Origin: an uncultured Acidobacteriota bacterium
GTDB taxonomy: Bacteria > Acidobacteriota > UBA6911
Assembly (NCBI GenBank): GCA_963839475.1
Contig: CAWIVH010000019.1
Span: 202,725-266,724 of the forward strand
Length of the DNA: 64,000 bases
Reading direction: 5' to 3'
How positions within the stretch are numbered: the stretch's first letter is position 1; the number at the start of each line of letters is the position of its first letter. Made by a program: the position numbers and the translations under genes. The notes beneath the pieces are model-generated. The model was not told the origin of the DNA and did no database searches. It saw nothing but the letters and a program-made list of their open reading frames with translations. Positions 16,431 through 64,000 of this stretch are shown piece after piece.

Positions 16431-16576
16431 CGGAAACCTGGAATCTCAGCGCCGGTTGCGGGGTTCAAAATGTCGCCCCTTTGGGGCTCATCCTCTTCCC
16501 TATCGATTCCCCGGGCTCGAGCCCGGGGCTGTTTTCTGACGCGCCTTTGGCGCTCCAGATTAAGCCCGGAGTGGAT

Positions 16577-33725: not shown

Positions 33726-34535
33726 GTTTCTCTCCTAAATCGTGAGCCGGCGTGCTTCGCTCGCAAACGGACCAGGCAAACGTTATATGGGATCGCAGAT
33801 CAGGAATCCCGGTTTGCCTTGCATCATCTCCGATGAGGAATTTCTCATTGAAGCATCTACCGGATTTACTCAATATAATACCATCCAAGAGAGACACAGG
33901 TGATGCGCATCATGAGTCGACGGTTCTGCGGGTTTGTTTTTGCCATTATCGTTTAAGCATAATCTCTCAAGCTCGATTCCCGTGAATAACTTCCCTCCCT
34001 TCGCGTCCTGTTTATCGGGAACAGCAATACCTATTTCAGCAACCTGCCGGAGAGTTCCTGCCGCAGCTACGCGGCTTTTTGAGAATAGAAACTTGGACTA
34101 GCGCACGGCGGGAGTCATCCACCTGCGGCAAATACAGCAAAATCAATCAGACCGCCAAACCACAAAGGCCGCAAAGGTTTTATTTATATATCTTTGCGGT
34201 CTTCGCGCCTTCGTGTTTCAATCTCTCGAGCGTTCCAAGTTTCCAGAGAGCCTCGCAGTTGCACAAGAAATATTCCTTCATCAGCGACATAATCGCACGG
34301 GCACAGCCAAAACAGCGGAGCCTGCAAGTGCGATCCATCGACCTTCTTGTCAGTCGATACCCATCGTGGGACTTGAAGATGCACTATGTCTGTGCTTGAA
34401 TTGAAATCAATCGGTCGGGACGGTGTAGGTCAGCTGGAAGAAAATTCAGAAAACTCGGGTTTCGAAGCAATTTCGAAAAGAATTTCTTCAGCCAAAGTTT
34501 CTTCATCCCAATTCCGGTGGAACAAGGACTGGTCG

Positions 34536-39072: not shown

Positions 39073-39999
39073 TCACGCCTGGCTGTCTATTTCCAATCCG
39101 GCGATGGGAACAGGGTGGGACCGGCCCTTGACCAGCGTTTCACCCAGGTCGTGGAATTGAAATCCGCCGGAGGCCCATTTGGCCATTTCGCGATTCAAGA
39201 TGACGGAATAGCCCATGGTTTTGGAAAGCGGTTCGAGGCGGAAAGCCACGTTGACGCTGTCTCCAACAGCCGTAAAGGACTGATGCTCGGCTGTGCCGAC
39301 ATTGCAAACCGTGGCCACGCCCATGTTCACTCCGATGCCAATGTTAAAGGTGTGTCCGGGAAATTTTTCCGTACAAGTAATCGAGAAGGTCCGTGATCTC
39401 AGGATCAAGGCTCGCGCCGCTGCCAAAGCACGGTTGACCTCCGGCGCGGGATCGGATTTGTCGGCGGCAATCCAGTATGCCATGACCGCGTCGCCGATGA
39501 ATTTGTCGACCGTCCCGCCATTCTCATCGATGAGTGCTGTTGCCTGGCGGAACCATTCATGGATCAAGGGTGAAAATTCCTGGCTCGGCAGCGCCTCACT
39601 CATGGAAGTGTAGTTGCGGACGTCCGCTACCAGGACGATCACCATCTCATTCCGAACTTCCAGTTTGGTGCCTGAACTGGTGGTGATGTACGGATTTGTC
39701 GCTTCGGCCGAGATGAGTTCAAACCGCATTTTCACACCGCCTATCTGGATCTCATCTCCGTTCTGAAGATCCCGCGGAGCCGTCATGCGCCGGCCGTTTA
39801 GCCATGTCCCGTTTGCGCTTCCGATATCGCTGAGACGATACCGCTCGCGGCCCAGGTGCCTTATTTCGGCGTGATTGCGCGATGCTTTTTGATCGTCCAG
39901 GACCAGTTTGTTGGTGGCTGAACGTCCGATCGTGAGGTGATCGCCTATTTCTATACCTTGCGCCTGCTGCTTATCCGAAGTAACAACAAGTCTGGCCAT
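39073..39999 (-). CDS. FHA domain fused to class III adenylate/guanylate cyclase
   Basis: N-terminal FHA (GRSATNKLVLDDQKASRNHAEI .. SANGTWLNG). C-terminal cyclase (MVIVLVADVRNYTSMSE .. FIGDAVMAYW .. GIGVNMGVATV). Confidence 0.85.
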   Translation of the reverse strand: MARLVVTSDKQQAQGIEIGDHLTIGRSATNKLVLDDQKASRNHAEIRHLGRERYRLSDIGSANGTWLNGRRMTAPRDLQNGDEIQIGGVKMRFELISAEATNPYITTSSGTKLEVRNEMVIVLVADVRNYTSMSEALPSQEFSPLIHEWFRQATALIDENGGTVDKFIGDAVMAYWIAADKSDPAPEVNRALAAARALILRSRTFSITCTEKFPGHTFNIGIGVNMGVATVCNVGTAEHQSFTAVGDSVNVAFRLEPLSKTMGYSVILNREMAKWASGGFQFHDLGETLVKGRSHPVPIAGLEIDSQA

Positions 40000-40552
40000 T
40001 TTTCCTGCTATTGATTGGTTGAGTTGTGCCCGATGGTTCAGCGATATCTGTTATCCTTGGCGGTTTTCCATTCCAAATTTCCGCCGCTATTCCCGGATCC
40101 CCAACCGGACCATCAGGGAAATCTGCATGGGTATATCGCATACAAGTCTAAAGCCATCCAGCCATGACGGCCGGATCCTGATTGAGTTACCAGGCCAGGC
40201 ATCCATGAATTATCCGATTCGAATATGCCGGAATCTGTGATGTCTCAAACTCACGCATGAGAGGCGCTACCCCTTATGATACACTATCTTGAAATTTGAT
40301 TTCACTATTAGATAGTAATTTATTCAATGCCGGAGTAGAATGGCCTAGGAAGATTTGCTCGGGTTAAATACCGCCTTTGAAAACAGATCGGCTCTGAATC
40401 CAGGTTATAGGCACCCGCTACGGCAGGGCTTTTTGCCCGAAGTTGTCGTTTGTGACAGCGTTTGTCAAGGAGTTGCTAGGGCCGCGTGGACATCAACCTG
40501 CCTGATGGACCAGCCGGCCGTTTTGAATCAATCCAAACGAAGGGTGGGCTCG

Positions 40553-41821
40553 ATGAAAAGGCTTTTACTGGTTTGGACCCTTTTCCCTTTTCTTCCTCTA
40601 ATTCGGTCAGGCGCAGCCCAGGAACCGCCGCCAGACTCTGATCGAGCGATCATCCGTCAACTCCTTGAGCGGGTACAGCAACTCGAAACAGAAGTGAGAG
40701 AACTGAAGGCGCGGCAGACGTCGCGCGGATTGCAGGAACCCGAAGCCGCACCGAAGCCTGCCGCCGTTCCGCCGCAGGCTTCCATGGCGCCAGCCCCTAT
40801 GCCAGGCGCGTCGCCGGTGATGGACATGCCCGATGCGTCCGCCCCCGGTGCTCCTCGTATGCAATTCCGAGGCTTTTCCGATGTTTCCTATCACGCGAGC
40901 GATTTGAAAGGCGACAAAAGCGCCTTTGCCTTGGGGCAGTTCAATCTGTTCATCACATCGAAAATTTCGGAGCGGATGAGCGTGCTGGCGGAGGCCGTGG
41001 TCGAAGCCGACGACCGCAACGCGTTCGGGTACGAACTCGAACGGCTCCAGCTGCAGTATTCGGCAAGCGATTATCTCAATGCCAGCTTCGGCCGTTACCA
41101 CACCGCCATTGGCTGGTACAACACGGCCTATCATCACAGCACATGGATGCAGACCGCGGTGGGGCGTCCCTTCCTGTTCGAATTTGAAGACAAGGGAGGA
41201 ATTCTGCCGGTTCACAATGTGGGGGTTTCGGTCAACGGCCGGGTTCCATCGGGAAGCCTGGGATTGCGCTATATTGCCGAAATCGGCAATGGGCGCGCCT
41301 CGCGATCCCCGCTGGCTGAACCGGTTCAAAACGTCCATGATGAAAACAATGGCAAGGCCTTCAATCTGGCGCTCCTGGCGCGGCCGGATTCGATGCCGGG
41401 ATTCCAGGCCGGTTTTTCTTATTATCGCGACAATCTGACCCCTTATGGAATGCCGAAAATCGGCCAGACCCTTATGGCGGTGCACGCGATCTATCAGGGC
41501 CCGGTTTGGGAGTGGCTTAATGAAGCGGTACTGGTTCGAAACGACACCCACTCGGAAGTGGGCACGACAAATACTCCGGCATTCTACTCACAGGTTTCAC
41601 GCAAATTTGGCCTTTTCCGGCCCTACTTCCGGTACCAGTACATGAATGTCCCGGATCGCGATCCGATCAACTCCGATGTCAGGCTCCGCTATGGCCCCTC
41701 GATCGGCATGCGATTGGACCTCGGTGATTTTGCCGCGTTCAAGATCCAATACGACCGCACCGACGGACGCAACGGTAGCGGGTTTAACAGCATCATCACA
41801 CAACTTTCGTTCGCGTTTTAA
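40553..41821 (+). CDS. outer-membrane beta-barrel (porin-like) protein with N-terminal coiled coil
   Basis: Start at ATG 40553. Signal peptide MKRLLLVWTLFPFLPLIRSGAAQ. Coiled coil RQLLERVQQLETEVRELKARQ. C-terminal ..ITQLSFAF ends in Phe. The antisense ORF 40607..41551 was rejected. Confidence 0.6.
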   Translation: MKRLLLVWTLFPFLPLIRSGAAQEPPPDSDRAIIRQLLERVQQLETEVRELKARQTSRGLQEPEAAPKPAAVPPQASMAPAPMPGASPVMDMPDASAPGAPRMQFRGFSDVSYHASDLKGDKSAFALGQFNLFITSKISERMSVLAEAVVEADDRNAFGYELERLQLQYSASDYLNASFGRYHTAIGWYNTAYHHSTWMQTAVGRPFLFEFEDKGGILPVHNVGVSVNGRVPSGSLGLRYIAEIGNGRASRSPLAEPVQNVHDENNGKAFNLALLARPDSMPGFQAGFSYYRDNLTPYGMPKIGQTLMAVHAIYQGPVWEWLNEAVLVRNDTHSEVGTTNTPAFYSQVSRKFGLFRPYFRYQYMNVPDRDPINSDVRLRYGPSIGMRLDLGDFAAFKIQYDRTDGRNGSGFNSIITQLSFAF

Positions 41822-44827: not shown

Positions 44828-45205
44828 ATGGCGAAAATACTGCTGGTCGAGGACAATGAGATGAATCGCGACATGCTGTCGCGCCGGCTGATGAAAAAGG
44901 GATACAGTGTCGTTATTGCCGTCGACGGACAGTCCGGCCTGGATCTGGGCTACTCGGAAACCCCTGATATAATCCTGATGGACATGAGCCTGCCCATCCT
45001 CGACGGGTGGGAGGCTACCCGCCGGCTGAAATCATCCCCCGAAACCCGATCGATTCCAATCATCGCACTGACGGCCCATGCCATGTCGTCAGATCGAACG
45101 AAAGCGATCGAAGCGGGCTGTGACGACTATGACACCAAGCCGGTCGATCTCCCGCGCCTGCTGGGAAAGATTGAGACCCTGCTCCATAAGGCATCTAGTT
45201 CATGA
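44828..45205 (+). CDS. single-domain response regulator (CheY-like)
   Basis: [14 protein letters not shown] .. ILMDMSLPILDG .. conserved K. Its stop overlaps the next gene's ATG (ATGA at 45202-45205). Confidence 0.85.
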   Translation: MAKILLVEDNEMNRDMLSRRLMKKGYSVVIAVDGQSGLDLGYSETPDIILMDMSLPILDGWEATRRLKSSPETRSIPIIALTAHAMSSDRTKAIEAGCDDYDTKPVDLPRLLGKIETLLHKASSS

Positions 45206-47118
45206 ATAAAGAGCCTGAAAAAAGCAATCCGGGGGCCGAGGGAGCGCGCGTCCGGCGCGCCCTGCTGGCCCATATGCGCCATGAACTCCGCACGCCGCTC
45301 AATGCGATACTCGGCTACAGCGAAATGTTGCTCGAAGATGCGGGCGGCGATGGCTGGGGCACAGTCAGGTCGGATCTCGAGAAGGTTCATGAAGCCGGAA
45401 CGCAACTTATTGCCATCGTTAACACCATCCTTGACCCGGCGAAAATCGAAGCCGGCATGATCAATCTCGAGGCTGCGGGCGATTTGATCCGGCACCAGTT
45501 GCGCACGCCGCTCGATGCCGTTATCGGCTATAGCGAGATGCTCATCGATGAGGCCGAATCGGCGGGACTGAGAGAATGCGCGGCCGACCTACAGCACATC
45601 CGGGCTGCCGGATTGAAACTGCTGGCCCTGATCGATGACATTATCCACTTTGCCGGAATCGAGACCTGGGCGGATGGATCAACGCCTCAGGTGGCAGCGG
45701 CATCCACCATGATCCAGAGCATTTTCACCCCCCCGCATTCCTCGCGACTCGAACAATCGACCGTTACCGAAATGGAACGGGGCTCACTCCTGGTGGTCGA
45801 TGATAACGAAATCAATCGCGACATTCTCTCGCGCTATCTGGAGCGCCGGGGGCATAGGGTCTCGACGGCAGCCAGCGGTCACGAAGCCTTGGATATCCTG
45901 TCCGGCCGAACTTACGATCTGATCCTGCTCGACATCATGATGCCTGGGCTGAACGGATTCGAAGTCCTCCAACAAATGAAATCCAGCCGGGAATTGAGCG
46001 GAATACCGGTAATCTTCATCAGCGCCCTGGATGACGCGCTCGGAAAAGTCCAGGCCTTCAGGACTGGAGGGGTGGATTATGTGACCAAGCCCTTCCAGGC
46101 CGATGAAGTCATCGCACGAGTGGAAAACCAGCTGAAGATCTCGCGACTGCAGAAGGATCTGGCCCGGCAAAACGAGGAGCTGATTCGGAAAAATAACGAA
46201 CTGGTTCAAGCGCATAGGCGGACTGCGCTGGTCTTTTCGGCTTTGGCCGAATCGTTGCCGGGGTCCACCCTGGATGAAAAATACCTTTTGGGGGAAATGA
46301 TCGGCACCGGAGGATTTGGCGCCGTTTACCGTGGCACCCACCTGGGATTGGACCTGCCCGTAGCTGTCAAGGTTTTCCGACCTGTCGCCGGTAACGATAC
46401 TCCGGATGCATTGGAGCGGTTTCGCCGTGAGGGAATCTCGGCCAGCCGGGTCAAACACCCCAATGCCGTCGAAATCCTGGACAACGGAATTTCTTCCAAC
46501 GGAATCGCCTACCTGGTCATGGAACTTTTACATGGGAGGACTCTGGGACAAGAAATGCTTGAGAAGCAGGTCCTTTCTCCCCGACGCACCGTCCGGATTA
46601 TCATCCCCGCGTGCCTTGCGCTGGCCGCCATTCACGAGGCTGACATCGTTCACCGGGATATCAAGCCTGAGAACATTTACCTTCACTCCACCCCTAAGGG
46701 AGAGGTGGTCAAGCTGCTCGATTTCGGCATTTCGAAGATGCTTGGAACAGAATCCGACCAGACCTTCGATAACACCACCAGGACCGGAAATGTGCTGGGC
46801 ACCCCGGCCTACATGGCGCCGGAACGATTTGAAAACAAGCCTTACGACGGCCGGGCGGATGTGTACAGCCTTGGCACCATATGTTACCGCATGCTTAGCG
46901 GCTTCCCACCCTTCCGCTCGGAGCGCGAGGATTTTTATGCGTTGGCCATCATGCATCTCCAGGCGCAGCCGCCCTCCTTGCGACAATACTTTCCTGAGAT
47001 TCCGGCGCGACTCGACAACCTGATACTCAGAACACTGGCCAAATCGCCCGTAGAGCGGCCGACGGCAGCGGAGCTGGCTGCACAATTGAGCGAACTCGAG
47101 CCTTTGCTGGAAGCCTGA
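45202..47118 (+). CDS. fusion protein: two HisKA-type phosphotransfer domains (no ATPase), receiver domain, Ser/Thr protein kinase
   Basis: H-boxes HMRHELRTPLNAILGYSEML and IRHQLRTPLDAVIGYSEML with no HATPase after them. REC (LLVVDDNEINRDIL .. LLDIMMPGLNG .. K). Coiled coil. Hanks kinase (IGTGGFGAVYRG, AVKV, HRDIKPENIYL, DFGISK, TPAYMAPE). Confidence 0.85.
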   Translation: MNKEPEKSNPGAEGARVRRALLAHMRHELRTPLNAILGYSEMLLEDAGGDGWGTVRSDLEKVHEAGTQLIAIVNTILDPAKIEAGMINLEAAGDLIRHQLRTPLDAVIGYSEMLIDEAESAGLRECAADLQHIRAAGLKLLALIDDIIHFAGIETWADGSTPQVAAASTMIQSIFTPPHSSRLEQSTVTEMERGSLLVVDDNEINRDILSRYLERRGHRVSTAASGHEALDILSGRTYDLILLDIMMPGLNGFEVLQQMKSSRELSGIPVIFISALDDALGKVQAFRTGGVDYVTKPFQADEVIARVENQLKISRLQKDLARQNEELIRKNNELVQAHRRTALVFSALAESLPGSTLDEKYLLGEMIGTGGFGAVYRGTHLGLDLPVAVKVFRPVAGNDTPDALERFRREGISASRVKHPNAVEILDNGISSNGIAYLVMELLHGRTLGQEMLEKQVLSPRRTVRIIIPACLALAAIHEADIVHRDIKPENIYLHSTPKGEVVKLLDFGISKMLGTESDQTFDNTTRTGNVLGTPAYMAPERFENKPYDGRADVYSLGTICYRMLSGFPPFRSEREDFYALAIMHLQAQPPSLRQYFPEIPARLDNLILRTLAKSPVERPTAAELAAQLSELEPLLEA

Positions 47119-51498: not shown

Positions 51499-54234
51499 AT
51501 GCACAAAAAATCTTTGCGGGTATCACGGCGTCTTTTCCTGGGCAGCCTAAGTGCGTCTGCCGTGGTTCCGGGCGAGAGACTGCCCGCAGCTGTTCCATGC
51601 TCCAGAACGGGGAACCCTATGAACGAAATGAGCAGCAACAGTCCGTCAGCCACCGGGATCGTCGACGGCCCCCCTTCGCCGCTTTTCACGCCGATTCCGA
51701 TCGCAGGCAACTGCACCATCGCCGATCTCGCAAAAACCGACCTGTCGGAACGTCTGCGCACGAGCCTCCCTTACGTTCCATGGGGCGATTGCGTCTTCTG
51801 GGGTATCCCATTCCAAATCGGCAGAATCGCCCTGGTGAGGCGCGAGCCTTTCGAATTCAAATGGCCGGAGCTGGAAACCTCCTGGCTGGTTGTCGTGCAC
51901 ACGACAGACATGGTGCACCCTGAAATCAACGAACACGGGCTGATTGCCTCGACACGGGGTCAAGGCCTGCTGCGCCAGCATGTTGCAGATTACATTTTCC
52001 AATATACGGACGGCACCGAAGAAAAGGTGCCGATCATGCGACAGCATCAGATCGGCATGATGTGGCGGCCATGGGGCATCAACTGCTTCGAAGCCGTCGC
52101 CCATCAAAAGCCCTATGCTATGCGCACCCTCTCGGAGCAGCCGCGCCCGGGATTAACGTGGGGGCCGACGCAGTTCCGACTGGGGCAGCCCGATTCGCAA
52201 CGCTGGGTCAACTGGCTCTGGGCCTGGGAAAATCCGCACCGGGACAAAAAACTCGCGGGTATGCGCATCGAGCCCGCGGCGGGCGCGTTGATACTATCGG
52301 CGATCAGCGCGGGTCGAACTTCGTCGATTCCCCTGCGCTGGGGAGCCAGGCAAAAAGCCGTTCTCAGACTGCCGGAGGGATCGGTTTTTGATCCGGCGCT
52401 CACCGATAAAGGGCTGTCGAAACACCTCCAACTGGACCTGGGCCAGATTATCTCCATCCAGCGGAAGGTTTCCTATCCCGATCGAACCTGGGAAGAGACC
52501 TACAACAACAAGTCTCCGGAGCGATCGGGCAAGGAACTTCTGATTGAATACACGGCCCATGAAGATGCCCGCTTTCACTTGCCCGACGGTTCCACCATCC
52601 CGGCAGCTCAAGCAGGGAAATCGCCAGGCGGACCAATTATTGAAGTGAATGCTGCCAGCCGTCGCGTCCGGCTGCGTGTGATCGACAAATCGAGCGGCAA
52701 GCCCGTCTCGGTGAAACTCCATGTTCATGGAGAAGCCGGCGAGTACCTGGCTCCGGTCGACCGGCATCGCATTCCCAACCCCCTGTGGTATGAAGACTGG
52801 AGCGTCGACTACGTCAATTCCGATTCGCATTACTGTACCTACATCCCCGGGGAGACGGAGATCGATCTTCCGCCGGGCCGGGTTTTCGTGGAGATCAGCA
52901 AGGGCTTCGAAATCGCCCCTATTCGCCGGATCGTGAACATCGATTCAGGGAGTACAGAGCTTGTTTTCACCATTGAGCGTGTTCTTCCCTGGCGCGAACA
53001 CGGCTGGGTGACTGCCGATACACACGTCCACTTTCTCTCCCCGGGTTCCGCACTTCTGGAGGGAGCTGGTGAAGGCGTCAATGTGGTGAACCTCCTCGCC
53101 AGCCAGTGGGGCGAGCTTATGACCAATATCGGCGATTTCGACGGCCGCACGACCTACGGAACGCGCGAGTCGGGCGGAGACGGCGAATACCTGGTGCGCG
53201 TGGGCACTGAAAACCGGCAGCACGTGCTGGGACACATATCGCTCCTGGGCTACAACGGATCGATCATCGCCCCGATGACGACGGGCGGGCCGGATGAATC
53301 GGCCCTCGGTGACCCGGTGGAGATCCTTCTGACCGAATGGGCCCGCCAGTGCCGCAAACAGGGCGGCATCGTCGTGGTGCCTCACTTTCCCCGCCCCCGA
53401 GCCGAACACGCCGCCGCGATTGTGCTGGGCGAAATCGACGGTGTCGAAATGACTTCGTGGTCCGACTTGTACGGCGGGATCGATCCCTATTCCCTCTCGG
53501 ATTGGTACCGATACCTGAACTGCGGCTACTTTGTCGCCGCGGTAGGCGGGACCGACAAGATGGCTGCAACTACGGCTGTGGGTGCGGTCCGCACGTACGC
53601 GAAGCTGCCGGCCGGAACCCTTCTCGACTATGAGGCATGGAAGAAAGCGGTGCGCACCGGCGATACTTTCGTGACCTATGGCCCTCTCATGGAATTTTCC
53701 GTGGAGGGAAAGCCCGCAGGCTCGAGGATCAGGATGCAGCGAAGTGGAGGCCGCGTGGCGGTCGACTGGAGGGTCGCGAGCGTTACTGTTCCAATGAGCA
53801 AAGTGGAGCTGGTCATCAATGGCGAGATCCGGGAGAGCCGTTCCATCCATTCCCGGGAAGACAGCGGGCAATGGACCGTCCACGTGGACCGGAGCTCCTG
53901 GATGGCTCTGTTGGTGCGGGGCCACTACTACGACAAGCCCGAAATCATCGCAGCTCATTCGTCCCCGGTGATGGTTGAAGTGGAAGGCACTCAGTTCTAT
54001 GCCGCCGCTGACGCACTCACCGTGCTGGAGCAGATCGAGGGAGCCCTGGCCTATCTCGACACTCTCGCCACACGCGCGGAGACTGAAGCCTATAAGCGGA
54101 TGCGGCTGGTGCTCACCAGTGCGCACCGGGCTGTCCACAACCGGATGCATCAGCAGGGAACCATGCACGATCACACCCCTGCCACCTATCATGATGAGCA
54201 TCGCAAAAGCGATGCAACGCGCAAGTTTCGTTGA
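51499..54234 (+). CDS. large hypothetical protein with putative metal-dependent hydrolase (PHP/CehA-like) core
   Basis: 911-aa ORF. Tat-like N-terminus SRRLFLGSLSASAVVP. Metal-hydrolase-like motifs WVTADTHVHFLSP .. VVVPHFPRP. Function not assignable from sequence alone. The antisense ORF 52945..54201 was rejected. Confidence 0.55.
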   Translation: MHKKSLRVSRRLFLGSLSASAVVPGERLPAAVPCSRTGNPMNEMSSNSPSATGIVDGPPSPLFTPIPIAGNCTIADLAKTDLSERLRTSLPYVPWGDCVFWGIPFQIGRIALVRREPFEFKWPELETSWLVVVHTTDMVHPEINEHGLIASTRGQGLLRQHVADYIFQYTDGTEEKVPIMRQHQIGMMWRPWGINCFEAVAHQKPYAMRTLSEQPRPGLTWGPTQFRLGQPDSQRWVNWLWAWENPHRDKKLAGMRIEPAAGALILSAISAGRTSSIPLRWGARQKAVLRLPEGSVFDPALTDKGLSKHLQLDLGQIISIQRKVSYPDRTWEETYNNKSPERSGKELLIEYTAHEDARFHLPDGSTIPAAQAGKSPGGPIIEVNAASRRVRLRVIDKSSGKPVSVKLHVHGEAGEYLAPVDRHRIPNPLWYEDWSVDYVNSDSHYCTYIPGETEIDLPPGRVFVEISKGFEIAPIRRIVNIDSGSTELVFTIERVLPWREHGWVTADTHVHFLSPGSALLEGAGEGVNVVNLLASQWGELMTNIGDFDGRTTYGTRESGGDGEYLVRVGTENRQHVLGHISLLGYNGSIIAPMTTGGPDESALGDPVEILLTEWARQCRKQGGIVVVPHFPRPRAEHAAAIVLGEIDGVEMTSWSDLYGGIDPYSLSDWYRYLNCGYFVAAVGGTDKMAATTAVGAVRTYAKLPAGTLLDYEAWKKAVRTGDTFVTYGPLMEFSVEGKPAGSRIRMQRSGGRVAVDWRVASVTVPMSKVELVINGEIRESRSIHSREDSGQWTVHVDRSSWMALLVRGHYYDKPEIIAAHSSPVMVEVEGTQFYAAADALTVLEQIEGALAYLDTLATRAETEAYKRMRLVLTSAHRAVHNRMHQQGTMHDHTPATYHDEHRKSDATRKFR

Positions 54235-54417: not shown

Positions 54418-55527
54418 TTACCGGCGAGGCCGCCGGAGTATGACGCAAGTGGTATCATCGTATCGCGGTTCGCGGCCGACAAAGGCATCCACGGAGGTCA
54501 GGATCCGCGTCAGCAAATCCGCGCTGCTTATGTCCGGGGCCGAGCCCAGGAGGCTGAGGAGCCGCAGCTCGCCGTACTCTTCCCCGCTATTGTTCTGAGC
54601 CTCAACGACGCCATCGGTAAAAATGATGAGGCGGTCGCCGGCGCTTATAATGGATTCTCCGGCGTCGTACTGGAAATTTTTGTCGATTCCCAGCGGCGGG
54701 CCTCCTGTTTCCAGGCGTTCTATCGCGCCGTTGCCGCGCATAAGCATGGGATAGTTATGTCCGGCATTGATGTAATGCAAAATACCGGAGGTCGTGTCCA
54801 GCTCCGCCAGGAATGCGGTCGTGAAGCGCAACCCGCCGAGGCTGTTCTCACAGGTGTATCGGTTCACGCTGTAAACCAGTTCGACGAGTGGAATGGGGCT
54901 TGCGGCGAGTGTGCGGAGACTGGCTTGGAAGGTGGCCATCAACAGCGCGGCGGGGACGCTTTTGCCTGCGACGTCTGCCACGACAAGCGTAAGCCGCTCC
55001 TCCTGCGGGCCTCCTGCCGGTCCCGGCCGGAGGAATACATCGTAGTAGTCTCCCGATACCGTATTCGCAGGCCGGGTCACGAAAGCGATGTCGATGCCGG
55101 GGATGGGCGGCGCTGCTTTCGGCACCAGCCATGCCTGTATCTCCCTCGCAATCTCAAGATCCCGCTTCATGGTGATGCGATCCGCGAGCTCGAGACCCAG
55201 GACTATGAGCACAAGTATCGACCCGACGATTATCGCTCCCTGCTCCTGCTGCCTCCCGGCCAAAATCAACAGCAGACCAAAAACCAGGCAGATGCGGCGT
55301 GCTGCCGATAATTCCCAGAAAAGTGCAGCCGCGATTTTCGCGATCTGCTTCCATCGCGGCAGCCGCCGGAATGCTTCCGAATCCATCTTTCGGGAGTACA
55401 CCCCATAGCTGGTCCGCGCTTCCGACGTCAGCTGCCTCCAGAGATCGCGAAGCGCCATCCCTTCTGTCAACCTGCCCCACAACCCAGAGCTTTTGCCGAA
55501 AGGATTCATAATCGATACCTCCAGCAA
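54418..55527 (-). CDS. membrane-anchored PP2C/SpoIIE-type Ser/Thr phosphatase (RsbU-like)
   Basis: Two N-terminal TM helices (IAAALFWELSAARRICLVFGLLLILAG, AIIVGSILVLIVLGL). PP2C/SpoIIE motifs TVSGDYYDVF .. LVVADVAGKSVPAAL .. INAGHNYPML .. FTDGVVE. Confidence 0.8.
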   Translation of the reverse strand: MLEVSIMNPFGKSSGLWGRLTEGMALRDLWRQLTSEARTSYGVYSRKMDSEAFRRLPRWKQIAKIAAALFWELSAARRICLVFGLLLILAGRQQEQGAIIVGSILVLIVLGLELADRITMKRDLEIAREIQAWLVPKAAPPIPGIDIAFVTRPANTVSGDYYDVFLRPGPAGGPQEERLTLVVADVAGKSVPAALLMATFQASLRTLAASPIPLVELVYSVNRYTCENSLGGLRFTTAFLAELDTTSGILHYINAGHNYPMLMRGNGAIERLETGGPPLGIDKNFQYDAGESIISAGDRLIIFTDGVVEAQNNSGEEYGELRLLSLLGSAPDISSADLLTRILTSVDAFVGREPRYDDTTCVILRRPRR

Positions 55528-55640: not shown

Positions 55641-58600
55641 TCAATATTTCAGACCGAAACCGTAGGGGAAAAGGGGATCATAATCCGGATCCCCGACATT
55701 GATGGGAACCTGCGACAGACTTCTGGGCCAGCTGCAGGGGAGCTTTCCAGCGGGGCTGTAATCGCCGAATAGAACATCAGTTACGCCCTGGCCTTCGGTT
55801 CCCGGAAGCCAGGCAGCGATAAGGGCATCCGCTTTGTCAAGGGCGGAACCGAGGATCAGAGGCCGACCCGAAACCAGAATAACCACCAGCGGAATTCCGC
55901 TTTGCCTGATATTGTCGATGACGGCGGTATCCTGCGCGGAAAGGCTCAGCGTGGCAACTATCGCCCGGGCCTTCGGCATAGGGTGGTTCCCCGATGATGG
56001 CGATGGCGACATCGGCTCCTGCGGCATTGGTTCCATCGGGGGAGTGAACCACTTGGGTGGAGACCGCGACCGACTGCCGGATAGCTTGCAGAATCGTGGT
56101 ACCGGTGGTGATGTTCCCCGCACTGCCCTGCCAGGAAATAGTCCACCCTCCGCACTGGCGCCCGATGTCGTCCGCGCTCAGCCCCGACACCATTACCCGG
56201 CGCAGGTTCTTGGAAAGAGGCAGGAGGCCGTCCCGGTTCTTCAGCAGCACCAGGGACTGGCGTACCGCCTCGCGAGCCGCTTCCCGGTGTTCCGCCGAAC
56301 CCAGGCGGGTCCGGTAGCTGTGATCACTGAAGGGCGACCGGTCGAAAAGCCCCGCGGCAAATTTCACCCGGAGGATTCTCCGGACGGCGTCGTCGACGCG
56401 CGACACCGGGATCTCGCCGGCCAGCACGAGGCTTTTGAGGGTGACGAAAAATTCCTGGTGCCGCTCCGGCACCATCCCCATGTCAATCCCCGCGTTGATG
56501 GCAGCTTTTACCTGGGCGCGATAGCTCCCGCCGGGGAGTTGGTCGATGGCGGCCCAATCCGATATCAGGAAACCCTCGAAGCCCAGCTCGCCTTTGAGCA
56601 CATCGGTAAGGAGGTATCGGTTGCCCGTCATTTTTTGCCCGTTCCAGCTGCTGAAGGAAACCATGATGGTCCCGACTCCGGCCTGGACGGCCGCCCGATA
56701 CCCGGGGAGGTGGACGCGCCTCAGTGTCGCTTCATCCATCTGAGTATCCCCCTGGTCTATCGGGTTGCCGGTGCCCCAACGGGTGCCCCCGTCGCCGAGA
56801 TAATGCTTGGCGCAAGCCACAATGCCCGACGGGTCGGCCAGACTAGACCTTTGATAGCCGAGAACAGCGGCCCGCCCCATTGCCTGAACGAGATCCGGGT
56901 CTTCTCCAAATCCCTCGTAGGTGCGGCCCCAACGTTCATCGCGCGGCACGGCTACGACCGGAGAGAAGGTCCAGTTCATGCCCGTCGCCCTCACTTCGCT
57001 TGCGGTGATTCGCCCGGCAATCTCCGCAAGGGCGGGATTGCGTGAAGCGCCCAGGCCGATGTTGTGGGGAAAAATCACCGCGCCGCGGACGTTATTGTGG
57101 CCATGCACCGCATCGATTCCATAGAGGATCGGGATCTTCAGCCTGGTTTTTAACGCCTGGGACTGAAAATCGTCATACATGTCCGCCCAGGCGTCGACCT
57201 GGTTGGATGCCGGTCCGGAACCGCCGCCGCTCAGGACAGATCCGATGAAATAGTTTTGGATATCGCCTTCGCGGAGCGAGCCGCGCTCGGCCTGGGTCAT
57301 TTGTCCAATCTTTTCATCCAGCGTCATTCGGCCGATCAGGTCGTCCACTTTAGGGTCGAATGCAGAGAGGGGCCTGGCATCCGGCCGATAGGGGGCTATG
57401 GGCAGAGAGGTATATTTTGATCCGCGACAGAGGAGGGACAGGCCAGCTACCGGAGCGGGGATATCCTCCCCGAACCTGGCGTCCCAGCTCGTTATTTCAA
57501 GTCTGCCGACGAAGTCGCGGGCAGCAATTCCCGGCACCTGGGGAAAGAGTTCATAAATAAACTGCCCCAGGCCGGTAAATGCGGAGAGGTGCAGAACCCT
57601 CTCTGCGACCGGATCCTGTTCACGAATCGAAACCTTCCCCGTTCCCGATCCTTCCTGACCCGAGGAGTCGAAGTACAGACGAAGGCGAACGACCCGGTTG
57701 TCTGCCGAAGCGTTACTCAACGCGAGGCCGGTGAGTATCTCCCCCTTCTCCCGCACGTAAAAGAGGCTCTTCGCCTCTGTCGAGAGACCGGGGACTCCGA
57801 TCTCAGATACAAAACTGCCGTTGTTCTTTTCACGGATGGTGAGGCCTGCGCCGCTTCCCAGCGGCCTGTCGGACGTGATTTTGGCCCATCCGATAGTTCC
57901 CGGATTGGATCTCCCCCCGGTGATCAGTTCCGCGGCACCGAGGGCGGGAATGGTCACCGTAAATCGGCTTGCGGTCGTTGGCCCGATGGTCACGGCCATG
58001 GGGGTGCCGTCGTTGGTAAAGAGTTCCAATGTGGCTGCCTGGCTCTCTTCGGAGTTGTTGAAGATCCAGAATGCAGTCTGCAGGCGCACGTCGCCCAGCG
58101 GCCCGTCACCAATCCGGGGGAAAACAAGATCGCGGGCAGTCTGACCGGACGCAGGGGGCGGCACGCTCGGCAGGGAGGTGTAGTTGGCGCCCCGGGAGCG
58201 AAGGGCGACCAGGGAAATGGGGAGATCGGAAGATAGGACCAGTACGCCGCTGAAATCCCGCAGGTCAGCCTGGCCAAAGGTTTCCGTCACATACTCCGCC
58301 TTCTGTGCGAGGGCCGAGAGGACCTCCGTTTTCGATGCTACCAGGCTCCCGTTCAACGACCTGAGCTCGAACAGGAGATTGGCGTTTCTGCCCGGATCCG
58401 GATTGCACAGGGCGAAGGCGGAGCTGTTGCCCCGGGTGTTTTCCGCCAGGATCATGAGCCGGTAGGCCGGCGGCGAATTCCCTATCCCCACCTCGGATTG
58501 GAAAATTCCTTTGTCGTCGGTAACAGTGAAGGTGGCAAAACCGCTCAACTCGGCATCCGCAACCACCTTGACCCAGCCTGTCTTCAAGGGGCCTGTGCCA

Positions 58601-58962
58601 TCGGTTTCGAAGCGCAACGCCTGCCCGGCCCCCAGGGCGAAACTGAAACTGTCCGCCCTTCCGAGGCTGGTGCCCAATGGCAGCGGAATGCCTGTGTTGC
58701 CATAAATCTGGAGCAACCCTGCGGCCGATCGTTCCGTGTGATTGATGAGGAGGACGCTGGAGCGGTAAGCGATTCCTCCGCTCGAGCCGTTGGCGATCTG
58801 GGGGAAAATCAGTGCCGTGCCCGACGCGGCTGCCGGGGCCGATTGAGCCGAGCTGGCAATGTCGGCACCGGGATGGCCCGATCCCGGGGATGGGACCGGA
58901 CTCCATGGAAAAAGAACTCCTAAAAACAGCGACAAAATAGCAACCACAGCCCACTTTTTCAT
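55641..58962 (-). pseudogene. glycoside hydrolase family 3 (beta-glucosidase-like) with ~500-aa N-terminal uncharacterised beta-rich domain; frameshift near 55960
   Basis: Track ORF 55837..58962 carries the GH3 catalytic N-domain ([12 protein letters not shown] .. [14 protein letters not shown] .. [20 protein letters not shown]). After ..[12 protein letters not shown] its last 38 codons are junk. The GH3 C-terminal domain ([32 protein letters not shown] .. [26 protein letters not shown]) continues in track ORF 55641..56123 in another frame. A single-nt indel at ~55960 separates them. Confidence 0.75.
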
Positions 58963-59296
58963 GGCCGGACCGTTCTCGCCCCTCAGTTTACTCCAGTAAA
59001 TGGTGACAGGCTAGAATTGCACCCATTGGAAACCGGTTTCTATGGCAATCGGGCCCCCGCGATGAGGCCGGGGATGCACGTGAAGTATGCAGCTTGAAAT
59101 GAATAGATGCAGCCGAGACGGAGGGGCTGATTGCCGGTGTTGCGAAAGGGCCATGACACTTTATGGTGAGTGGACACCCATCCACCCCGGTTAGAGCAAG
59201 ATGGGCTCCCTGAATACTGCAGTCGAGTCCATAACCCAAGGGATCGGAGGACCGCTCAAGAAATAAGATCCGCTTGCAGCCGCCCCCCAAACCGGG

Positions 59297-60601
59297 TCAA
59301 TGGGTCGCGCAGGTCAGGCAGGGATCGAAGAGCCTCACGCAACGGGCGATCATCTCGTGGCCCGCGGCTGAAATCTCGTCGCCATCGAGGAAATCATCCG
59401 CAAGGTCGCGTATGGCCAGATTGATATAAGCATTGTTGAACTGGGTTGCGACAAACAGTTTGATCGATTCCACCATCCCCCGGTTGATTGTATAGCTGTG
59501 CAGCAGGATTCCGCGGGGAGCCTCCACAACGCCGATCCCTTTGCCGCTTACGCTGAGATCCACCTCGGTCTTCATGGGACGTGAAAGATCAATTTCCTCC
59601 AGCAGCTTCAGGATGGTTTTTGCCGAACAGAAGATCTCGAGAAGCCGGCAGATGTCAAAGTCGTCAATCGAAAGAGACTCGGTATCTCGCAAGCGATGGG
59701 TGATCTCGTATCCCTTGAGATCAGGGTCGTCAAGCACACCGTGCTTCCTGAAAAGCCGGGAAAGCGGCCCGACAAGAACGATGCCGGCGGGAAACCCGAG
59801 GGAAGACAGATAGGGAAGCTTTGCGAATGACCAATCCACTCGCATTTCGGACATGTTGTCCTCAAAACTGTCGGCGGTGAAGCTGCAGGTCTGCTGCCCC
59901 CTGTTGTCGAAGGTCCTGAAAGCCCTCTCCTCCCCGGTTTCATCGAAAGTCAGGAAATTCGTCGGATGCGCCTTCGGGAATCCAATGAGGTGGGGTTGCC
60001 TTGAACGTCCTTCAAAAATGACGAGCTCCTGCAAGGCCTCTGTCTTTATCTTCAATGCGATGTTGCGAATCTCGTCCAGGTCGGTTGCCGTTGGAATGGT
60101 CAGATAACTCCCGACACCCATGGCAACCGGATGGACGGCCCGTTTGCAGAGCACCTCGAGAATGCGGTTGCCGGCCTTGCGCCAGGCGAAAGCCTTGGCC
60201 GCCACCTCGGGGTGGCTTTGCATCATATCGAATATCCCGTTGGTAACGCCGAGCTGATCCGGAAGGGTCAGGAAGAAATAGCTCAGAGAATGGCTTGCAA
60301 TGGTCTCTCCCAGCAGGGCTATTTCCCGCAGCTTGGTCACGTCTTCCGGGACCTTTATCCCCACGGCGTTTTCCACCGCGCTGAATCCGGCAACCTGATG
60401 AGCGGTGCAACACAGGCCGCAGATCCGGGAGACGATTTGAGGCGCACAATCCGCCTGCCTGCCCTGAACTATTTTTTCAAACCCGCGAAAGTCCATGACT
60501 GAAAAATGGGCGGTCTTCACGCGGCCATGATCCACTTCCAGGTGGATGTCCGCGTTCCCCTCGATGCGCGTGGCTTTATTCAGTGTGATGATCTTGCCCA
60601 T
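59297..60601 (-). CDS. [NiFe]-hydrogenase large subunit (no C-terminal protease-cleaved extension)
   Basis: N-terminal RIEGN (variant of RxEGH; His replaced by Asn) and RICGLCCTAHQVA. C-terminal DPCLTCATH followed directly by the stop. 434 aa. Starts 1 nt after the small-subunit stop. Confidence 0.85.
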   Translation of the reverse strand: MGKIITLNKATRIEGNADIHLEVDHGRVKTAHFSVMDFRGFEKIVQGRQADCAPQIVSRICGLCCTAHQVAGFSAVENAVGIKVPEDVTKLREIALLGETIASHSLSYFFLTLPDQLGVTNGIFDMMQSHPEVAAKAFAWRKAGNRILEVLCKRAVHPVAMGVGSYLTIPTATDLDEIRNIALKIKTEALQELVIFEGRSRQPHLIGFPKAHPTNFLTFDETGEERAFRTFDNRGQQTCSFTADSFEDNMSEMRVDWSFAKLPYLSSLGFPAGIVLVGPLSRLFRKHGVLDDPDLKGYEITHRLRDTESLSIDDFDICRLLEIFCSAKTILKLLEEIDLSRPMKTEVDLSVSGKGIGVVEAPRGILLHSYTINRGMVESIKLFVATQFNNAYINLAIRDLADDFLDGDEISAAGHEMIARCVRLFDPCLTCATH

Positions 60602-61981
60602 TTACCGGTACCTCGTGGCGCTCGCGGAAGCCTCGTGATCAAAATCAAACAGCGCATGGCCCTGCCGCTTGAGCACCCGGACCCGTTCCCGGGTTGGCGC
60701 CTCCTCAACCTTGCATCGCAGGCTCAATCCTTTGGAGAAAACTTCTTCATAGTAGTCTCCGGCAGCGATTTTCTTCACCACGGGCATGGACGGGCCTCGA
60801 CATCCCCAGCAGGGCATCCCGTTAATGGGGCAGGGAGCGCCGCATCCGCCCTTCGTCACAAAGCCCATGCAGGCTGCACCCAAGGAGGTAAGGCATTTGC
60901 CCGGGTCCGCACCGGCAATCGGCGACATGTGGAAAGAACCCGCCACATCCTTGGACGCTTTTCTCGTGCACTCGGCGCAGACGATGGCCTTGCCTTTGCC
61001 TGCCTGCTCCGTCATGAGTTCCGTGATCAGCTGCAAAAGCAATTCAGGATTCGCTGGACATCCGGGGAGAAAGTAATCGACCTTGGCAAAAGTGGAGATT
61101 CGGTGGGCCTGTCTCAGGAGCGCCACCTTTCCGTGCTTCTGGTAGGTGGCGTCGCGGTCTACGCCGGCCTGGCCTGACAGATAATACGAGAATGCATCGA
61201 CCGTATTGCCGTAAGTTTCCGCAATCAGTTCCTCGGGCTCAAACCGATTGGCTTCCCCTGGGATGCCACCATACGCCGCACAGGTTCCCCAGGCCACCAA
61301 ATAGCGGCTCTTGGCACGCGCCTCTTCCAGGACCTGAACATCATCCCGCAGCCTGACAAGCCCATCGACGATGGCAACATCGGCTTCCGAAAGGTGCGCG
61401 TTGTCCATGAGCATGGGGCAGTAGACAATTTTGGTGTATTGGAAGAGTTTCTCGAGCAACTGGTCGTCGAGGAGCACAGCGGAGCACCCGGCACAGGTGG
61501 ACAATGACACCAGCGATATCTTGATCTTCTCCTTTCTCAACACAGGGCGCCATGACATCAGCTGAGCAGCTTCAGAATGATTCGCGGGGCTCGCCAGGAT
61601 GGCCTGCTGCTCTTTGAGCATCGCGATGAGCGTCCTGGTAATGTGCAGGGCGATTTCCGGTCTGGCATTTATGAGATCGTGCAATTCGGATTTCTTGATT
61701 CGCGCCAGCAGCGTCTCCGACCCGGCAACGGCGGCGGCGCTTCTCGGCGAATCGGAAAGGATCGCCATTTCTCCGAAAAATCCACCGGGCTGCAGGATGC
61801 GGATCTCGCGCCTGTCTTCCCCTGCGCCCTGAAATATGCGCACGTCCCCTTTCAGGAGGATGTACATTTCATCGCCCGGATCCCCCTCGTTGAAAATGAC
61901 CTCTCCCGGCTGGAAGGATACGAGGCTGGCCGCGATCCCACTCCGAGGACTCCGTTTTGCCCTCGGGTTCATTAGCTGCAA
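60602..61981 (-). CDS. cyclic-nucleotide-binding domain fused to [NiFe]-hydrogenase small subunit (NuoB-like fold)
   Basis: N-terminal cNMP-binding domain with the phosphate-binding cassette FGEMAILSDSPRSAA. Residues ~150-459: proximal-cluster ligands LSTCAGCS, GTCAAYGGIP and PGCPANPE, then a Cys-rich medial/distal cluster region (CAECTRK .. CMGFVTKGGCGAPCPINGMPCWGCRGP). Its start overlaps the upstream gene's end by 10 nt. Confidence 0.8.
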   Translation of the reverse strand: MQLMNPRAKRSPRSGIAASLVSFQPGEVIFNEGDPGDEMYILLKGDVRIFQGAGEDRREIRILQPGGFFGEMAILSDSPRSAAAVAGSETLLARIKKSELHDLINARPEIALHITRTLIAMLKEQQAILASPANHSEAAQLMSWRPVLRKEKIKISLVSLSTCAGCSAVLLDDQLLEKLFQYTKIVYCPMLMDNAHLSEADVAIVDGLVRLRDDVQVLEEARAKSRYLVAWGTCAAYGGIPGEANRFEPEELIAETYGNTVDAFSYYLSGQAGVDRDATYQKHGKVALLRQAHRISTFAKVDYFLPGCPANPELLLQLITELMTEQAGKGKAIVCAECTRKASKDVAGSFHMSPIAGADPGKCLTSLGAACMGFVTKGGCGAPCPINGMPCWGCRGPSMPVVKKIAAGDYYEEVFSKGLSLRCKVEEAPTRERVRVLKRQGHALFDFDHEASASATRYR

Positions 61982-62445
61982 TGGCGGAAACTGATGCCGG
62001 GTCGCCTGTTACCGGTGGCGGGGACAGGCTGTGGGTCTTCGGGCTGAGGAGCGGAATCGTCCATGGATTCATCGGCAGAGCTCCGGCGAGCGGCCTCGGC
62101 GGCTTTTTCAACCGCTTTGATCCTGACGATCAGGGCTCTTATAAAATGAAGAAAAATGGAAGGATCTTTTCGCCCCCTTTCGATCAGGTTTTCTTTGGTG
62201 ATGGCCAGGAGGCGCGAACGTTGAATGGCCCTGCAGGTTGCCGACCTGGGTTCATCGCGGATAATGGCCATTTCGCCGAAAAAGTCGCCTTTCCCCAGGA
62301 TCGCCAGCACTTCCTCCTTATCACCTGCCCGCCGCGATACCTCGATGGCCCCGGACTGGATGATGTACATTTCATGTCCGGGCTGGCCCTGCTCAAAAAT
62401 CACCGCGTTTCGTTCATAGACGGAGCCGAAAATTTCATTTTCCAT
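61972..62445 (-). CDS. stand-alone cyclic-nucleotide-binding (cNMP) domain protein
   Basis: GDFFGEMAIIRDEPRSATCRA phosphate-binding cassette. Paralogous to the N-terminal domain of the small-subunit fusion. Confidence 0.75.
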   Translation of the reverse strand: MENEIFGSVYERNAVIFEQGQPGHEMYIIQSGAIEVSRRAGDKEEVLAILGKGDFFGEMAIIRDEPRSATCRAIQRSRLLAITKENLIERGRKDPSIFLHFIRALIVRIKAVEKAAEAARRSSADESMDDSAPQPEDPQPVPATGNRRPGISFRHCS

Positions 62446-62557
62446 AGACGTGCCTCTTTGTTTCCGGACCGCACGGGCCGCAATGCCAAACGAACCGCAA
62501 AGTTCTCCAAGACCGCGAAGGTATTATTGATTAATCTTGGCGGCCTTCGCGGTTCAA

Positions 62558-63547
62558 TCAAATGCCGGCGGGCATGACGGTCGCGCTGGATCCCTCCTGG
62601 CGCTCGGCTGCGAGGAATTCGAGCCCCAGCACATTTCCTACGCGCACGATGTCTCCCGGGCGGAGGGGTACTTCCTCGCCTTTAATCAGGGTGCGATCGT
62701 TGACCGTGAGCGGAGCACTGGAAACGGCCCGGAGCATGAAACCGTTTGTGCCGCGCCGGAGTTCGAAGTGCCAGCGGCTGATCTGAAGGGTTTGCTGCTC
62801 GTCCTTGCATTGGAGCACGATGTCGTTGGCGGGCAAGCCGTCTTTTTCCTTCAGCCGTCCGAAGGTGATGATGTCCTGTTCGGGGAGTCTCTGCTCTTCC
62901 CCCGTATCGAGGCGCACCAGGATCGGGAAGATTTTCTGGTCCCGCCATTCCAGGGTTGCAAGATCGACCGGATGCTCGAAGCCTTTTACCGAGACCGGCA
63001 TCAGCATGCGGCATTTGAGCCGGAAATGCAGATCCGTAAAAGCAAGGAATGCGGCCTTGCTCAGCCGTATCTCCCCCGAGGCTGAGGTCGACGTGATGCG
63101 CGCGCAGAAATTTGCGGCATCGCCTGTAACCTGGATCCCGTCCGTCAGGACCGGGCCGAAGTGAATGCCGATCCGTACCGCGAGCTGGTGTTCCCGGGCG
63201 CGGGTGCTGTTTTCCGCCGAGATCAGCTGGAGGAGCTCGATCATGGCGCCGGCGGCTTTGTCGACGGTCGGGAAACAGAGGAAAGCACCGTCGCCCGCCG
63301 TGTCGATGATCCTGCCCTCATGCCCCTGGATGCAGTGATTCAGCAGGTCGAGATGCCGCTGCTGCAGCTGTCTTCCCGCTTCGTTGCCGAAGCGCGCAAA
63401 GTAGGGTGTGGATCCGACGACGTCGGAAAACGCCAGGGCGATGCGCTGTTCGAAACGCCGTATCAGCGCCGCCGACAGCATGGTCTGGAGGCGGATGATC
63501 TCCGTCATGCTGAGCGCATTGCAGAGGTTTTCAAAATCAGGTTGCAT
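62558..63547 (-). CDS. class III adenylate/guanylate cyclase with C-terminal FHA domain
   Basis: Cyclase motifs IALAFSDVVGSTPYF .. IDTAGDGAFLCF .. GDAANFCARI. C-terminal FHA (ITFGRLKEKDG .. SRWHFELRR .. LTVNDRTL). First gene of the hydrogenase-containing operon. Confidence 0.85.
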   Translation of the reverse strand: MQPDFENLCNALSMTEIIRLQTMLSAALIRRFEQRIALAFSDVVGSTPYFARFGNEAGRQLQQRHLDLLNHCIQGHEGRIIDTAGDGAFLCFPTVDKAAGAMIELLQLISAENSTRAREHQLAVRIGIHFGPVLTDGIQVTGDAANFCARITSTSASGEIRLSKAAFLAFTDLHFRLKCRMLMPVSVKGFEHPVDLATLEWRDQKIFPILVRLDTGEEQRLPEQDIITFGRLKEKDGLPANDIVLQCKDEQQTLQISRWHFELRRGTNGFMLRAVSSAPLTVNDRTLIKGEEVPLRPGDIVRVGNVLGLEFLAAERQEGSSATVMPAGI

Positions 63548-64000
63548 CGAAGCCTCAAAAGAGAAAATTAGGGATTTTTCGCGCAGGGCATGCGCGTCAA
63601 GCCAAGCCGCATTACCTGAGCGTAGATGCGGATATCTCTGCGCGCTCTGCGATACATTAGATGCGCTGATCGGATACGAATACTGAAGAACCTAATCTAC
63701 TGATATTGCAAAAAATTCTCCAGCAAAATTGACGGAGTCGAAATCGAAGCCTCTCCCGTTCCATCTTTTGCTCTTCGGAAATTTGATGCTCTTAAAGGAT
63801 TGAACCGCGAAAGCGCGAAGGTCACAAGGATCAAAAAAACAATACCTTTGCATTCTTGATCGCGATTGTCGGTATGGTTTACGGAAAGATTCCAGGCTGT
63901 AACCCATTGTGACGGAAGCGTTTAATCAAATTCGGCGGCTCCTGGCGTCAAGTCCTCTTACGATCCTGCGAGGAACTTCGACACCAAAAAATCGAATATC

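Follow-up and report, generated by a model that had tools for sequence, protein, structure and literature searches.

Can a [NiFe] hydrogenase be switched directly by a cyclic nucleotide? This question is raised by one locus of an uncultured Acidobacteriota bacterium (GTDB lineage UBA6911), found in a stretch of 64,000 nucleotides that we call the window (assembly GCA_963839475.1, contig CAWIVH010000019.1, positions 202,725 to 266,724). Here, a single open reading frame (ORF) of 459 aa with a TTG start, at 60602..61981 on the minus strand, carries a cyclic-nucleotide-binding (CNB) domain in front of a hydrogenase small subunit (HydS). The same ORF, read from the ATG at 61972 as a protein of 456 aa, is present with 100% identity in a public protein collection (P0001; NCBI and ENA sources). 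An initial sequence-only reading had described an in-frame fusion and had suggested that the attached domain controls, or signals from, the iron-sulfur (FeS) relay. Considering homologues, structures and gene neighbourhoods, we suggest that the gene belongs to an apparently undescribed family of group-3 [NiFe] hydrogenases with a built-in tandem module predicted to sense cyclic nucleoside monophosphates (cNMP). We consider it somewhat probable (about 55%) that the enzyme is a cytoplasmic group-3-type heterodimer gated allosterically by cyclic AMP or cyclic GMP (cAMP/cGMP).

The fusion itself is found within one ORF, as had been claimed. Pfam assigns residues 21-105 to cNMP_binding (PF00027; E 1.4e-24), a significant match with 86 bits for a cut-off of 27.5 bits, and residues 163-322 to Oxidored_q6 (PF01058; E 1.4e-23), while residues 150-401 have their top solved relative in MvhG (5odc_E, E 1e-46), aligned through all Cys motifs. 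The core of the locus consists of:

59297..60601, minus strand: [NiFe] large subunit (HydL), 434 aa, directly after HydS (Pfam NiFeSe_Hases, E 7.6e-29)
60602..61552, minus strand: HydS part of the 459-aa ORF (Oxidored_q6, E 1.4e-23; MvhG 5odc_E, E 1e-46)
61667..61921, minus strand: CNB-B, the second CNB domain (cNMP_binding, E 1.4e-24)

All the motifs previously quoted (phosphate-binding cassette, CxxC, GxCxxxGG, GCPx and the Cys-rich C-terminal region) could be located by coordinate. The cassette of CNB-B, FFGEMAILSDSPRSAA, lies at 61733-61780. HydS includes a flavodoxin-like proximal-cluster domain with the motifs TCAGC (61484-61498), GTCAAYGG (61265-61288) and PGCP (61055-61066), and 8 more Cys as ligands of the other two [4Fe-4S] clusters, medial and distal (VCAEC, GKC..AAC and GGCGAPCPINGMPCWGC). 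A short and conserved connector, W-x-P-x-L-K-K, joins the C-helix of CNB-B to strand 1 of the proximal-cluster domain. At the other end, a conserved tail of ~60 aa (60602-60790, minus strand) extends past the MvhG-homologous region and bears a near-invariant R-x-R at the extreme C terminus (RYR in the window); this tail is modelled with low confidence. Since the 459-aa ORF opens with a CNB domain, it has no Tat or Sec signal peptide, and we agree with the sequence-only reading that the hydrogenase is predicted to be cytoplasmic.

HydL contains both nickel-iron ligand motifs, RICGLCCTAH (60398-60427) and DPCLTCATH (59300-59326), as well as EAPRG and TRIEGNA (60551-60571, minus strand). With these two ligand motifs and an Oxidored_q6 small subunit that holds the 4 proximal Cys, the pair has the marks of a [NiFe] hydrogenase. 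In an alignment of 30 family sequences, the RxCGxCxxxH and DPCxxCxxH motifs, the PRG arginine and the RxEG glutamate are all kept. TRIEGNA is invariant in the family, with Asn at a position that is His (EGH or AGH) in MvhA and the other group-3 relatives compared, and could serve as a diagnostic family signature. HydL stops at DPCLTCATH, which forms its final residues, and thus has no C-terminal extension; it is evidently translationally coupled to HydS and should need no C-terminal processing. Across the 32 loci listed, family HydL proteins end at ...CATH, bar one that ends at ...CATQ and lacks the terminal His (L022:3096-4391, in a metagenome-assembled genome (MAG) of Desulfonatronovibrio).

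A protein search over 5.8 billion proteins gave 307 relatives, the best 120 of which provide the homologue figures given here. PF00027 and PF01058 occur together in 120 of these 120, and the same fusion is present in ~30 genomes of three phyla, which rules out a misassembly of the CNB/HydS junction. The length is 571-651 aa in 116 of the 120 proteins, ~150 aa more than in the window ORF. The normal small subunit is indeed a single chain of ~610 aa with the architecture CNB-CNB-HydS, and in a profile search of 1.84 billion representatives, the full-length proteins fell into ~19 clusters at 50% identity, while multi-CNB proteins dominated the remaining matches. Together with a HydL of 428-439 aa, this chain is encoded by a two-gene cassette in which the genes overlap or abut. 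The ~30 genomic loci belong to Chloroflexota/Anaerolineae, Thermodesulfovibrionales/Nitrospirota and many Desulfobacterota, including the complete genome of the cultured Desulfosarcina widdelii PP31 (L026), where the cassette occupies ~3503742-3506935 of NZ_AP021875.1.

Residue conservation was counted over 116 homologues. Thirteen Cys of HydS are conserved, twelve of them in 116/116 and one in 115/116, and the proximal-cluster motifs TCAGC, GTC and GCP are invariant. These Cys suffice for three [4Fe-4S] clusters (proximal, medial and distal), and all three ligand sets are complete in the window. Judging from these residues, the family is evidently a competent redox enzyme rather than a relic, and the window copy appears to be a typical member of it, though frame-broken. 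The source annotations are inconsistent and name the family proteins F420-reducing, F420-non-reducing or NAD-reducing hydrogenase, which would mislead metabolic reconstructions.

One claim of the sequence-only reading had to be abandoned, namely that the free cNMP-binding protein encoded immediately upstream is a separate, paralogous partner of the fusion: in at least 115 homologues, this domain precedes a second CNB domain in tandem on the same chain. The corresponding features are:

61972..62445, minus strand: ORF of 157 aa with CNB-A and most of the inter-domain linker (Pfam cNMP_binding, E 1.9e-25)
61925..62020, minus strand: frame-break zone in the variable linker between the CNB domains (frame change of homology to P0002-P0005)

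CNB-A scores 89 bits (cut-off 27.5) and has its phosphate-binding cassette, FFGEMAIIRDEPRSAT, at 62236-62283. In the 606-aa homologue P0002, residues 1-109 share 75% identity with the 157-aa ORF and residues 167-606 share 69% with the 459-aa ORF, and the N termini of the full-length homologues (MEEEIFGSVYEKN...) match the 157-aa ORF; this alignment rules out an independent paralogue. The ancestral gene evidently encoded one chain (CNB-A, linker, CNB-B and HydS), with the 157-aa ORF as its detached 5' part and the 459-aa ORF as the 3' three-quarters of a gene normally encoding ~610 aa. Homology to P0002-P0005 ends in the first frame at ~62005-62038, and a different frame takes over at ~61924-61930. 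The stop codon of the upstream frame (TAA, 61972-61974) overlaps the ATG at 61970-61972 (TAATG). The third frame of the linker reads ..EWDRG.., which resembles the WD before LVSF in homologues (a weak match, tblastn E 0.57) and hints at two indels. A good Shine-Dalgarno sequence stands ahead of the CNB-A ATG at 62445 (AAAGAGG) and another ahead of the large-subunit ATG; on inspection, none was seen ahead of the ATG at 61972 or the TTG at 61981. A promoter and terminator scan of 58800-64000 gave nothing above shuffle expectation.

Both CNB domains have the FGEMA..PRSA cassette with the canonical Gly-Glu ... Arg-[ST]-Ala residues, from which we infer that they bind cAMP or cGMP. In CNB-A, the phosphate-binding Gly, Glu and Arg are each present in 116/116 homologues; in CNB-B, Gly is found in 116/116, Glu in 111 (Asp in 5) and Arg in 104 (Gln in 12). 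An AlphaFold2 model gives both domains a pLDDT of ~90 and predicts the linker between them to be disordered (pLDDT 31-44). A Foldseek search with the modelled N-terminal half returned the tandem CNB-A/B of the regulatory subunits of protein kinase A (PKA-R) and of protein kinase G (PKG) as best matches, while the modelled C-terminal half matched MvhG. The NCBIfam model of Pat is also matched by both domains. CNB-fused bacterial enzymes that are allosterically activated by cAMP, such as the mycobacterial acetyltransferase Pat, provide a precedent. As in PKA-R/PKG, Pat, the CNB-EAL protein Bd1971 and the SulP-STAS-CNB permeases, the CNB module lies N-terminal to, or beside, an effector that it would control allosterically, and it shares the tandem A/B arrangement of PKA-R/PKG. 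Unlike in these proteins, the effector is here the electron-transfer subunit of a metallo-enzyme, which is undescribed as a CNB target in the literature searched. The CNB-HydS fusion was likewise not found in the full-text literature searched, in which we met only HoxI (see below) and separate CNB genes in group-3b clusters.

The gene neighbourhood is rich in candidates for making, removing and reading a cyclic nucleotide. In the window, the apparent operon has as its first gene:

62558..63547, minus strand: class III nucleotidyl cyclase (residues 34-189; Guanylate_cyc, E 3.2e-13) with a C-terminal FHA domain (residues 227-304; FHA, E 4.6e-09), 329 aa

The top solved relative of this cyclase is the adenylyl cyclase Ma1120 (4wp8, E 3e-14), and its metal-binding motifs are FSDVVGST and TAGDGAF. 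Pfam families were assigned to the 104 immediate neighbours of 31 loci, and the commonest are cNMP_binding (12), Sulfate_transp (8), STAS (8), Guanylate_cyc (4) and PDEase_II (3). In 22 of 32 loci, one or more cNMP-signalling genes (cyclases, phosphodiesterase-like (PDE-like) genes or other CNB fusions) lie within 8 kb. Besides that of the window, class III cyclases were identified by Pfam in L008, L009, L011, L013, L019, L020, L026 (two) and L030, and the cyclases of the other loci carry FHA, CHASE2, GAF or REC inputs. In Desulfobacterota loci, genes for SulP-STAS-CNB permeases come immediately after HydL:

L011:6441-8660: SulP-STAS-CNB permease
L014:11223-13478: SulP-STAS-CNB permease
L017:11223-13478: SulP-STAS-CNB permease
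L024:4636-6873 and L024:6980-9196: SulP-STAS-CNB permeases
L032:5480-7750: SulP-STAS-CNB permease
L051:1751-4021: SulP-STAS-CNB permease

This suggests that, in Desulfobacterota, the same messenger controls the uptake of an anion (possibly sulfate) and the hydrogenase together. In Thermodesulfovibrionales/Nitrospirota loci, the position directly downstream of HydL is occupied by genes similar to class-II cAMP phosphodiesterases, with a metallo-beta-lactamase fold:

L007:6265-7032: class-II PDE-like, confirmed by Pfam
L008:11596-11925: class-II PDE-like, homologue by clustering
L027:2870-3637: class-II PDE-like, homologue by clustering
L028:3550-4053: class-II PDE-like, homologue by clustering

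Moreover, CNB(-PilZ)-Ser/Thr kinases are encoded in L006 and L029 and an MMPL-CNB-GGDEF protein in L033 (Pfam), to which L021 adds a homologous ORF (1110 aa) that also bears a CNB domain. The cyclase and cAMP-PDE-like neighbours argue for true cNMP signalling. The regulatory role proposed in the sequence-only reading, in which a ligand-binding domain controls the FeS relay or signals from it, becomes more credible with the conserved phosphate-binding residues and with the strong association of the cassette with cyclase, PDE-like and CNB genes; the allosteric step is retained as a proposal.

The best solved relatives of HydL all belong to group 3 (Vhu/Mvh, the HydABCSL-type 7t2r, SH 5xf9, SHI and Frh), and the small-subunit part has the same set. 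Consistent with group 3, the nearest relatives are in 3a-3d and a signal peptide is missing; dedicated cofactor-reducing partner subunits were not found beside the cassette in the 31 loci. Indeed, no Hdr, MvhD, diaphorase, FrhB, HoxFU or HydBG was seen among the 25 commonest Pfam families of the 104 neighbours, and no redox cluster recurs within 8 kb. Within group 3, the family is by sequence nearest to 3c, the F420-non-reducing, heterodisulfide-reductase-linked MvhAG/VhuAG, and yet is not a member by the tests applied. The two are alike in their cytoplasmic location, in having three small-subunit [4Fe-4S] clusters and in their active-site motifs, and VhuA/MvhA are the top solved relatives of HydL (9sw2_F, E 4e-55; 5odc_F, E 6e-53). 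Unlike in MvhAG/VhuAG, neither MvhD nor HdrABC lies near the cassette in any locus, HydL has RIEGN instead of RxEGH, and HydS has an N-terminal tandem CNB module of ~300 aa and the conserved C-terminal tail. The alignment of HydL ends at chain residue 448 of 472, so that solved VhuA (9sw2_F) runs ~24 residues past the family protein, which has no extension of the kind removed by an endopeptidase in 3c. The scores against the NCBIfam models are also far below the cut-offs (VhuG, 172.8 for 450 bits; VhuA, 189.4 for 800 bits).

If the enzyme is gated by cAMP/cGMP, as we propose, the class III cyclases whose genes adjoin the cassette would supply the messenger, and the neighbouring phosphodiesterase-like enzymes would remove it. 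The nucleotide would occupy the canonical phosphate-binding cassettes of both CNB domains, and its binding would shift the CNB C-helix, as happens in other fusions of a CNB domain to an effector. Through the C-helix and the connector, the signal could then reach strand 1 of the proximal-cluster domain and turn the enzyme on or off. The switch might act on the turnover of molecular hydrogen (H2), or on electrons as they leave the distal cluster for a soluble carrier, for instance ferredoxin. The adjacent SulP-STAS-CNB permease of sulfate reducers may also be gated by this messenger, which would couple electron-donor use to anion uptake. Several observations weigh against this scheme. No electron acceptor was identified around the cassette. 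Twelve of the 116 homologues have Gln for the phosphate-binding Arg of CNB-B. The window cyclase has Asp at the position aligned to the Lys that we take to be the purine-specifying residue of Ma1120, so that its product may be either cAMP or cGMP. The enrichment of signalling genes, striking as their adjacency is, was judged qualitatively. With a monomer pTM of 0.54 and a disordered linker, the AlphaFold2 model does not fix where the CNB domains sit with respect to the FeS relay. Finally, the CNB-CNB-HydS gene of the window is frame-broken and could be non-functional.

The same loci can be read in the opposite direction, with the hydrogenase as a regulatory H2 sensor rather than a metabolic enzyme, its FeS relay being reduced by H2 and the redox state passed through the CNB domains to partners (CNB-kinase, FHA-cyclase or SulP-STAS-CNB). 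The CNB domains would bind and release such partners like a PKA regulatory subunit, integrating H2 with cNMP levels. We regard this reading as possible but doubtful. In the group 2b H2 sensor, HoxC has no C-terminal extension and HoxB has an extra domain on the small subunit; both traits recur here, with a HydL devoid of extension in the loci checked, although absent or very short extensions are also seen in non-sensory group-3 relatives. Like 2b HoxBC and the putative 2c enzymes, the family has two subunits without a respiratory partner, a signalling module on the small subunit and a tie to second-messenger signalling. The neighbours also speak for a sensor, since the cassette has no conserved redox partner gene beside it and the recurrent genes are signalling ones (Ser/Thr kinases, cyclases and GGDEF); however, no one partner is conserved across phyla, and neither a histidine kinase nor a GGDEF partner, as expected for 2b/2c, is conserved beside it. 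The best fold matches, the tandem CNB domains of PKA-R/PKG, do act by partner binding, but CNB domains are normally inputs rather than outputs, and the attached module is here an N-terminal ligand-input domain. Second-messenger-linked sensory classes have been put forward, since the HydDB scheme gives histidine-kinase-linked 2b and putative diguanylate-cyclase-linked 2c classes, and no cAMP/cGMP-linked one (PMC5037454); by sequence, however, the family groups with 3 and not with 2. It is a little less likely still that we are dealing with a new class of signalling hydrogenase, in which FeS redox state (H2) and cNMP occupancy would be integrated by the PKA-R-like tandem CNB with an output to partner proteins. 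If so, the family would be a second-messenger-coupled H2 sensor or switch rather than merely a regulated metabolic enzyme.

Very improbable, in our opinion, is a module of the HoxI type, in which the CNB folds would bind NAD(P)H or a similar nucleotide instead of cyclic nucleotides, for reductive activation or cofactor docking as has been proposed for HoxI. HoxI, from the soluble hydrogenase of Cupriavidus necator H16 (3d), is the characterised precedent for a CNB-fold subunit physically tied to a cytoplasmic group-3 [NiFe] hydrogenase, and NADP(H) binding has been proposed for it (PMC12319191); CNB-domain genes also occur, as separate genes, in actinobacterial group-3b clusters (PMC13332983). 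HoxI (pHG1, L067:14836-15339) does align to each of the two CNB domains of the window, with E 2e-11 and 6e-08. Its cassette, TPHSLSV, has His in place of the phosphate-binding Arg, consistent with the proposed NADP(H) binding, whereas Gly, Glu and Arg are near-invariant in the family. Moreover, HoxI is a separate protein of 167 aa with a single CNB domain, in an enzyme with the HoxFU diaphorase, whereas the family has two canonical CNB domains fused in tandem to the small subunit, no flavin or diaphorase subunit found that could use NAD(P)H, and cyclase and cAMP-PDE-like neighbours. A last alternative concerns the window copy, which might be a decaying or non-functional gene, either truly split with loss of regulation or a pseudogene. 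We find this unlikely, despite the frame break and the missing Shine-Dalgarno sequence ahead of the downstream start, and despite genuine decay of the cassette in L029, which has an IS110 insertion, and in L036, which carries an internal deletion. Both halves are intact outside the linker, with the identities to P0002 given above (75% for CNB-A and 69% for the rest) and every ligand residue kept, and the break sits in a linker that is disordered in the model and not conserved. Conserved domains are broken in at least two unrelated genes of the same 64 kb, which assembly indels fit better. The two genes are a hybrid sensor kinase (16481-20660, plus strand), with a frameshift within its GAF domain at ~17700-17720, and a GH3 glycosidase (55641-58962, minus strand), broken near 56000 inside Glyco_hydro_3_C:

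16481-17779, plus strand: 5' ORF of the kinase, with 4HB_MCP, HAMP and GAF profile positions 2-99 of 136
17385-20660, plus strand: remainder of the kinase in another frame, GAF-HisKA-HATPase-REC-Hpt
55837-58962, minus strand: GH3 glycosidase with Glyco_hydro_3_C profile positions 1-86
55641-56123, minus strand: GH3 glycosidase with Glyco_hydro_3_C profile positions 92-200

Three frame breaks in ~50 window genes point to assembly indels. The other broken cassette copies (L029, L032, L033, L035 and L036) all come from MAGs with MFD isolate names, which we suspect to be long-read assemblies. Altogether, we give an assembly indel about three chances in five as the origin of the window split, and a real split or young pseudogene about two in five; since the linker is predicted to be disordered, even a real split could leave both parts functional. 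In the Thermodesulfovibrionales MAG of L029 (6039-9425), an IS110-family transposase (6425-7330) separates a CNB-A fragment from the remainder of the gene.

To our knowledge, hydrogenases are controlled through transcription, maturation and redox or O2 inactivation, and in the literature searched, we met no hydrogenase described as directly gated by a second messenger. Gating by cAMP/cGMP, if true, would be the first testable case of a fast post-translational control of H2 metabolism by cyclic nucleotides. It would also tie cyclic-nucleotide signalling in anaerobes, which as far as we know is poorly understood, to a defined bioenergetic target. Biochemical tests are feasible, since the cassette is present in a cultured and fully sequenced sulfate reducer, Desulfosarcina widdelii PP31.

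The window contains other genes of note. Four ORFs have no Pfam family at E<=1e-5: 4496-5971 (minus strand, 491 aa), 9055-10590 (plus strand, 511 aa), 40355-41821 (plus strand, 488 aa) and 51499-54234 (plus strand, 911 aa). A second gene combining FHA and class III cyclase domains (39073-39999, minus strand, 308 aa) has the domain order opposite to that of 62558-63547. The window is also rich in Ser/Thr kinase, PP2C and FHA signalling, with kinases at 34386-35519 and 45202-47118 and SpoIIE phosphatases at 14916-16430 and 54418-55527. The kinase at 45202-47118 (plus strand) is an unusual single ORF of 638 aa that combines HisKA, receiver and Ser/Thr protein kinase domains.

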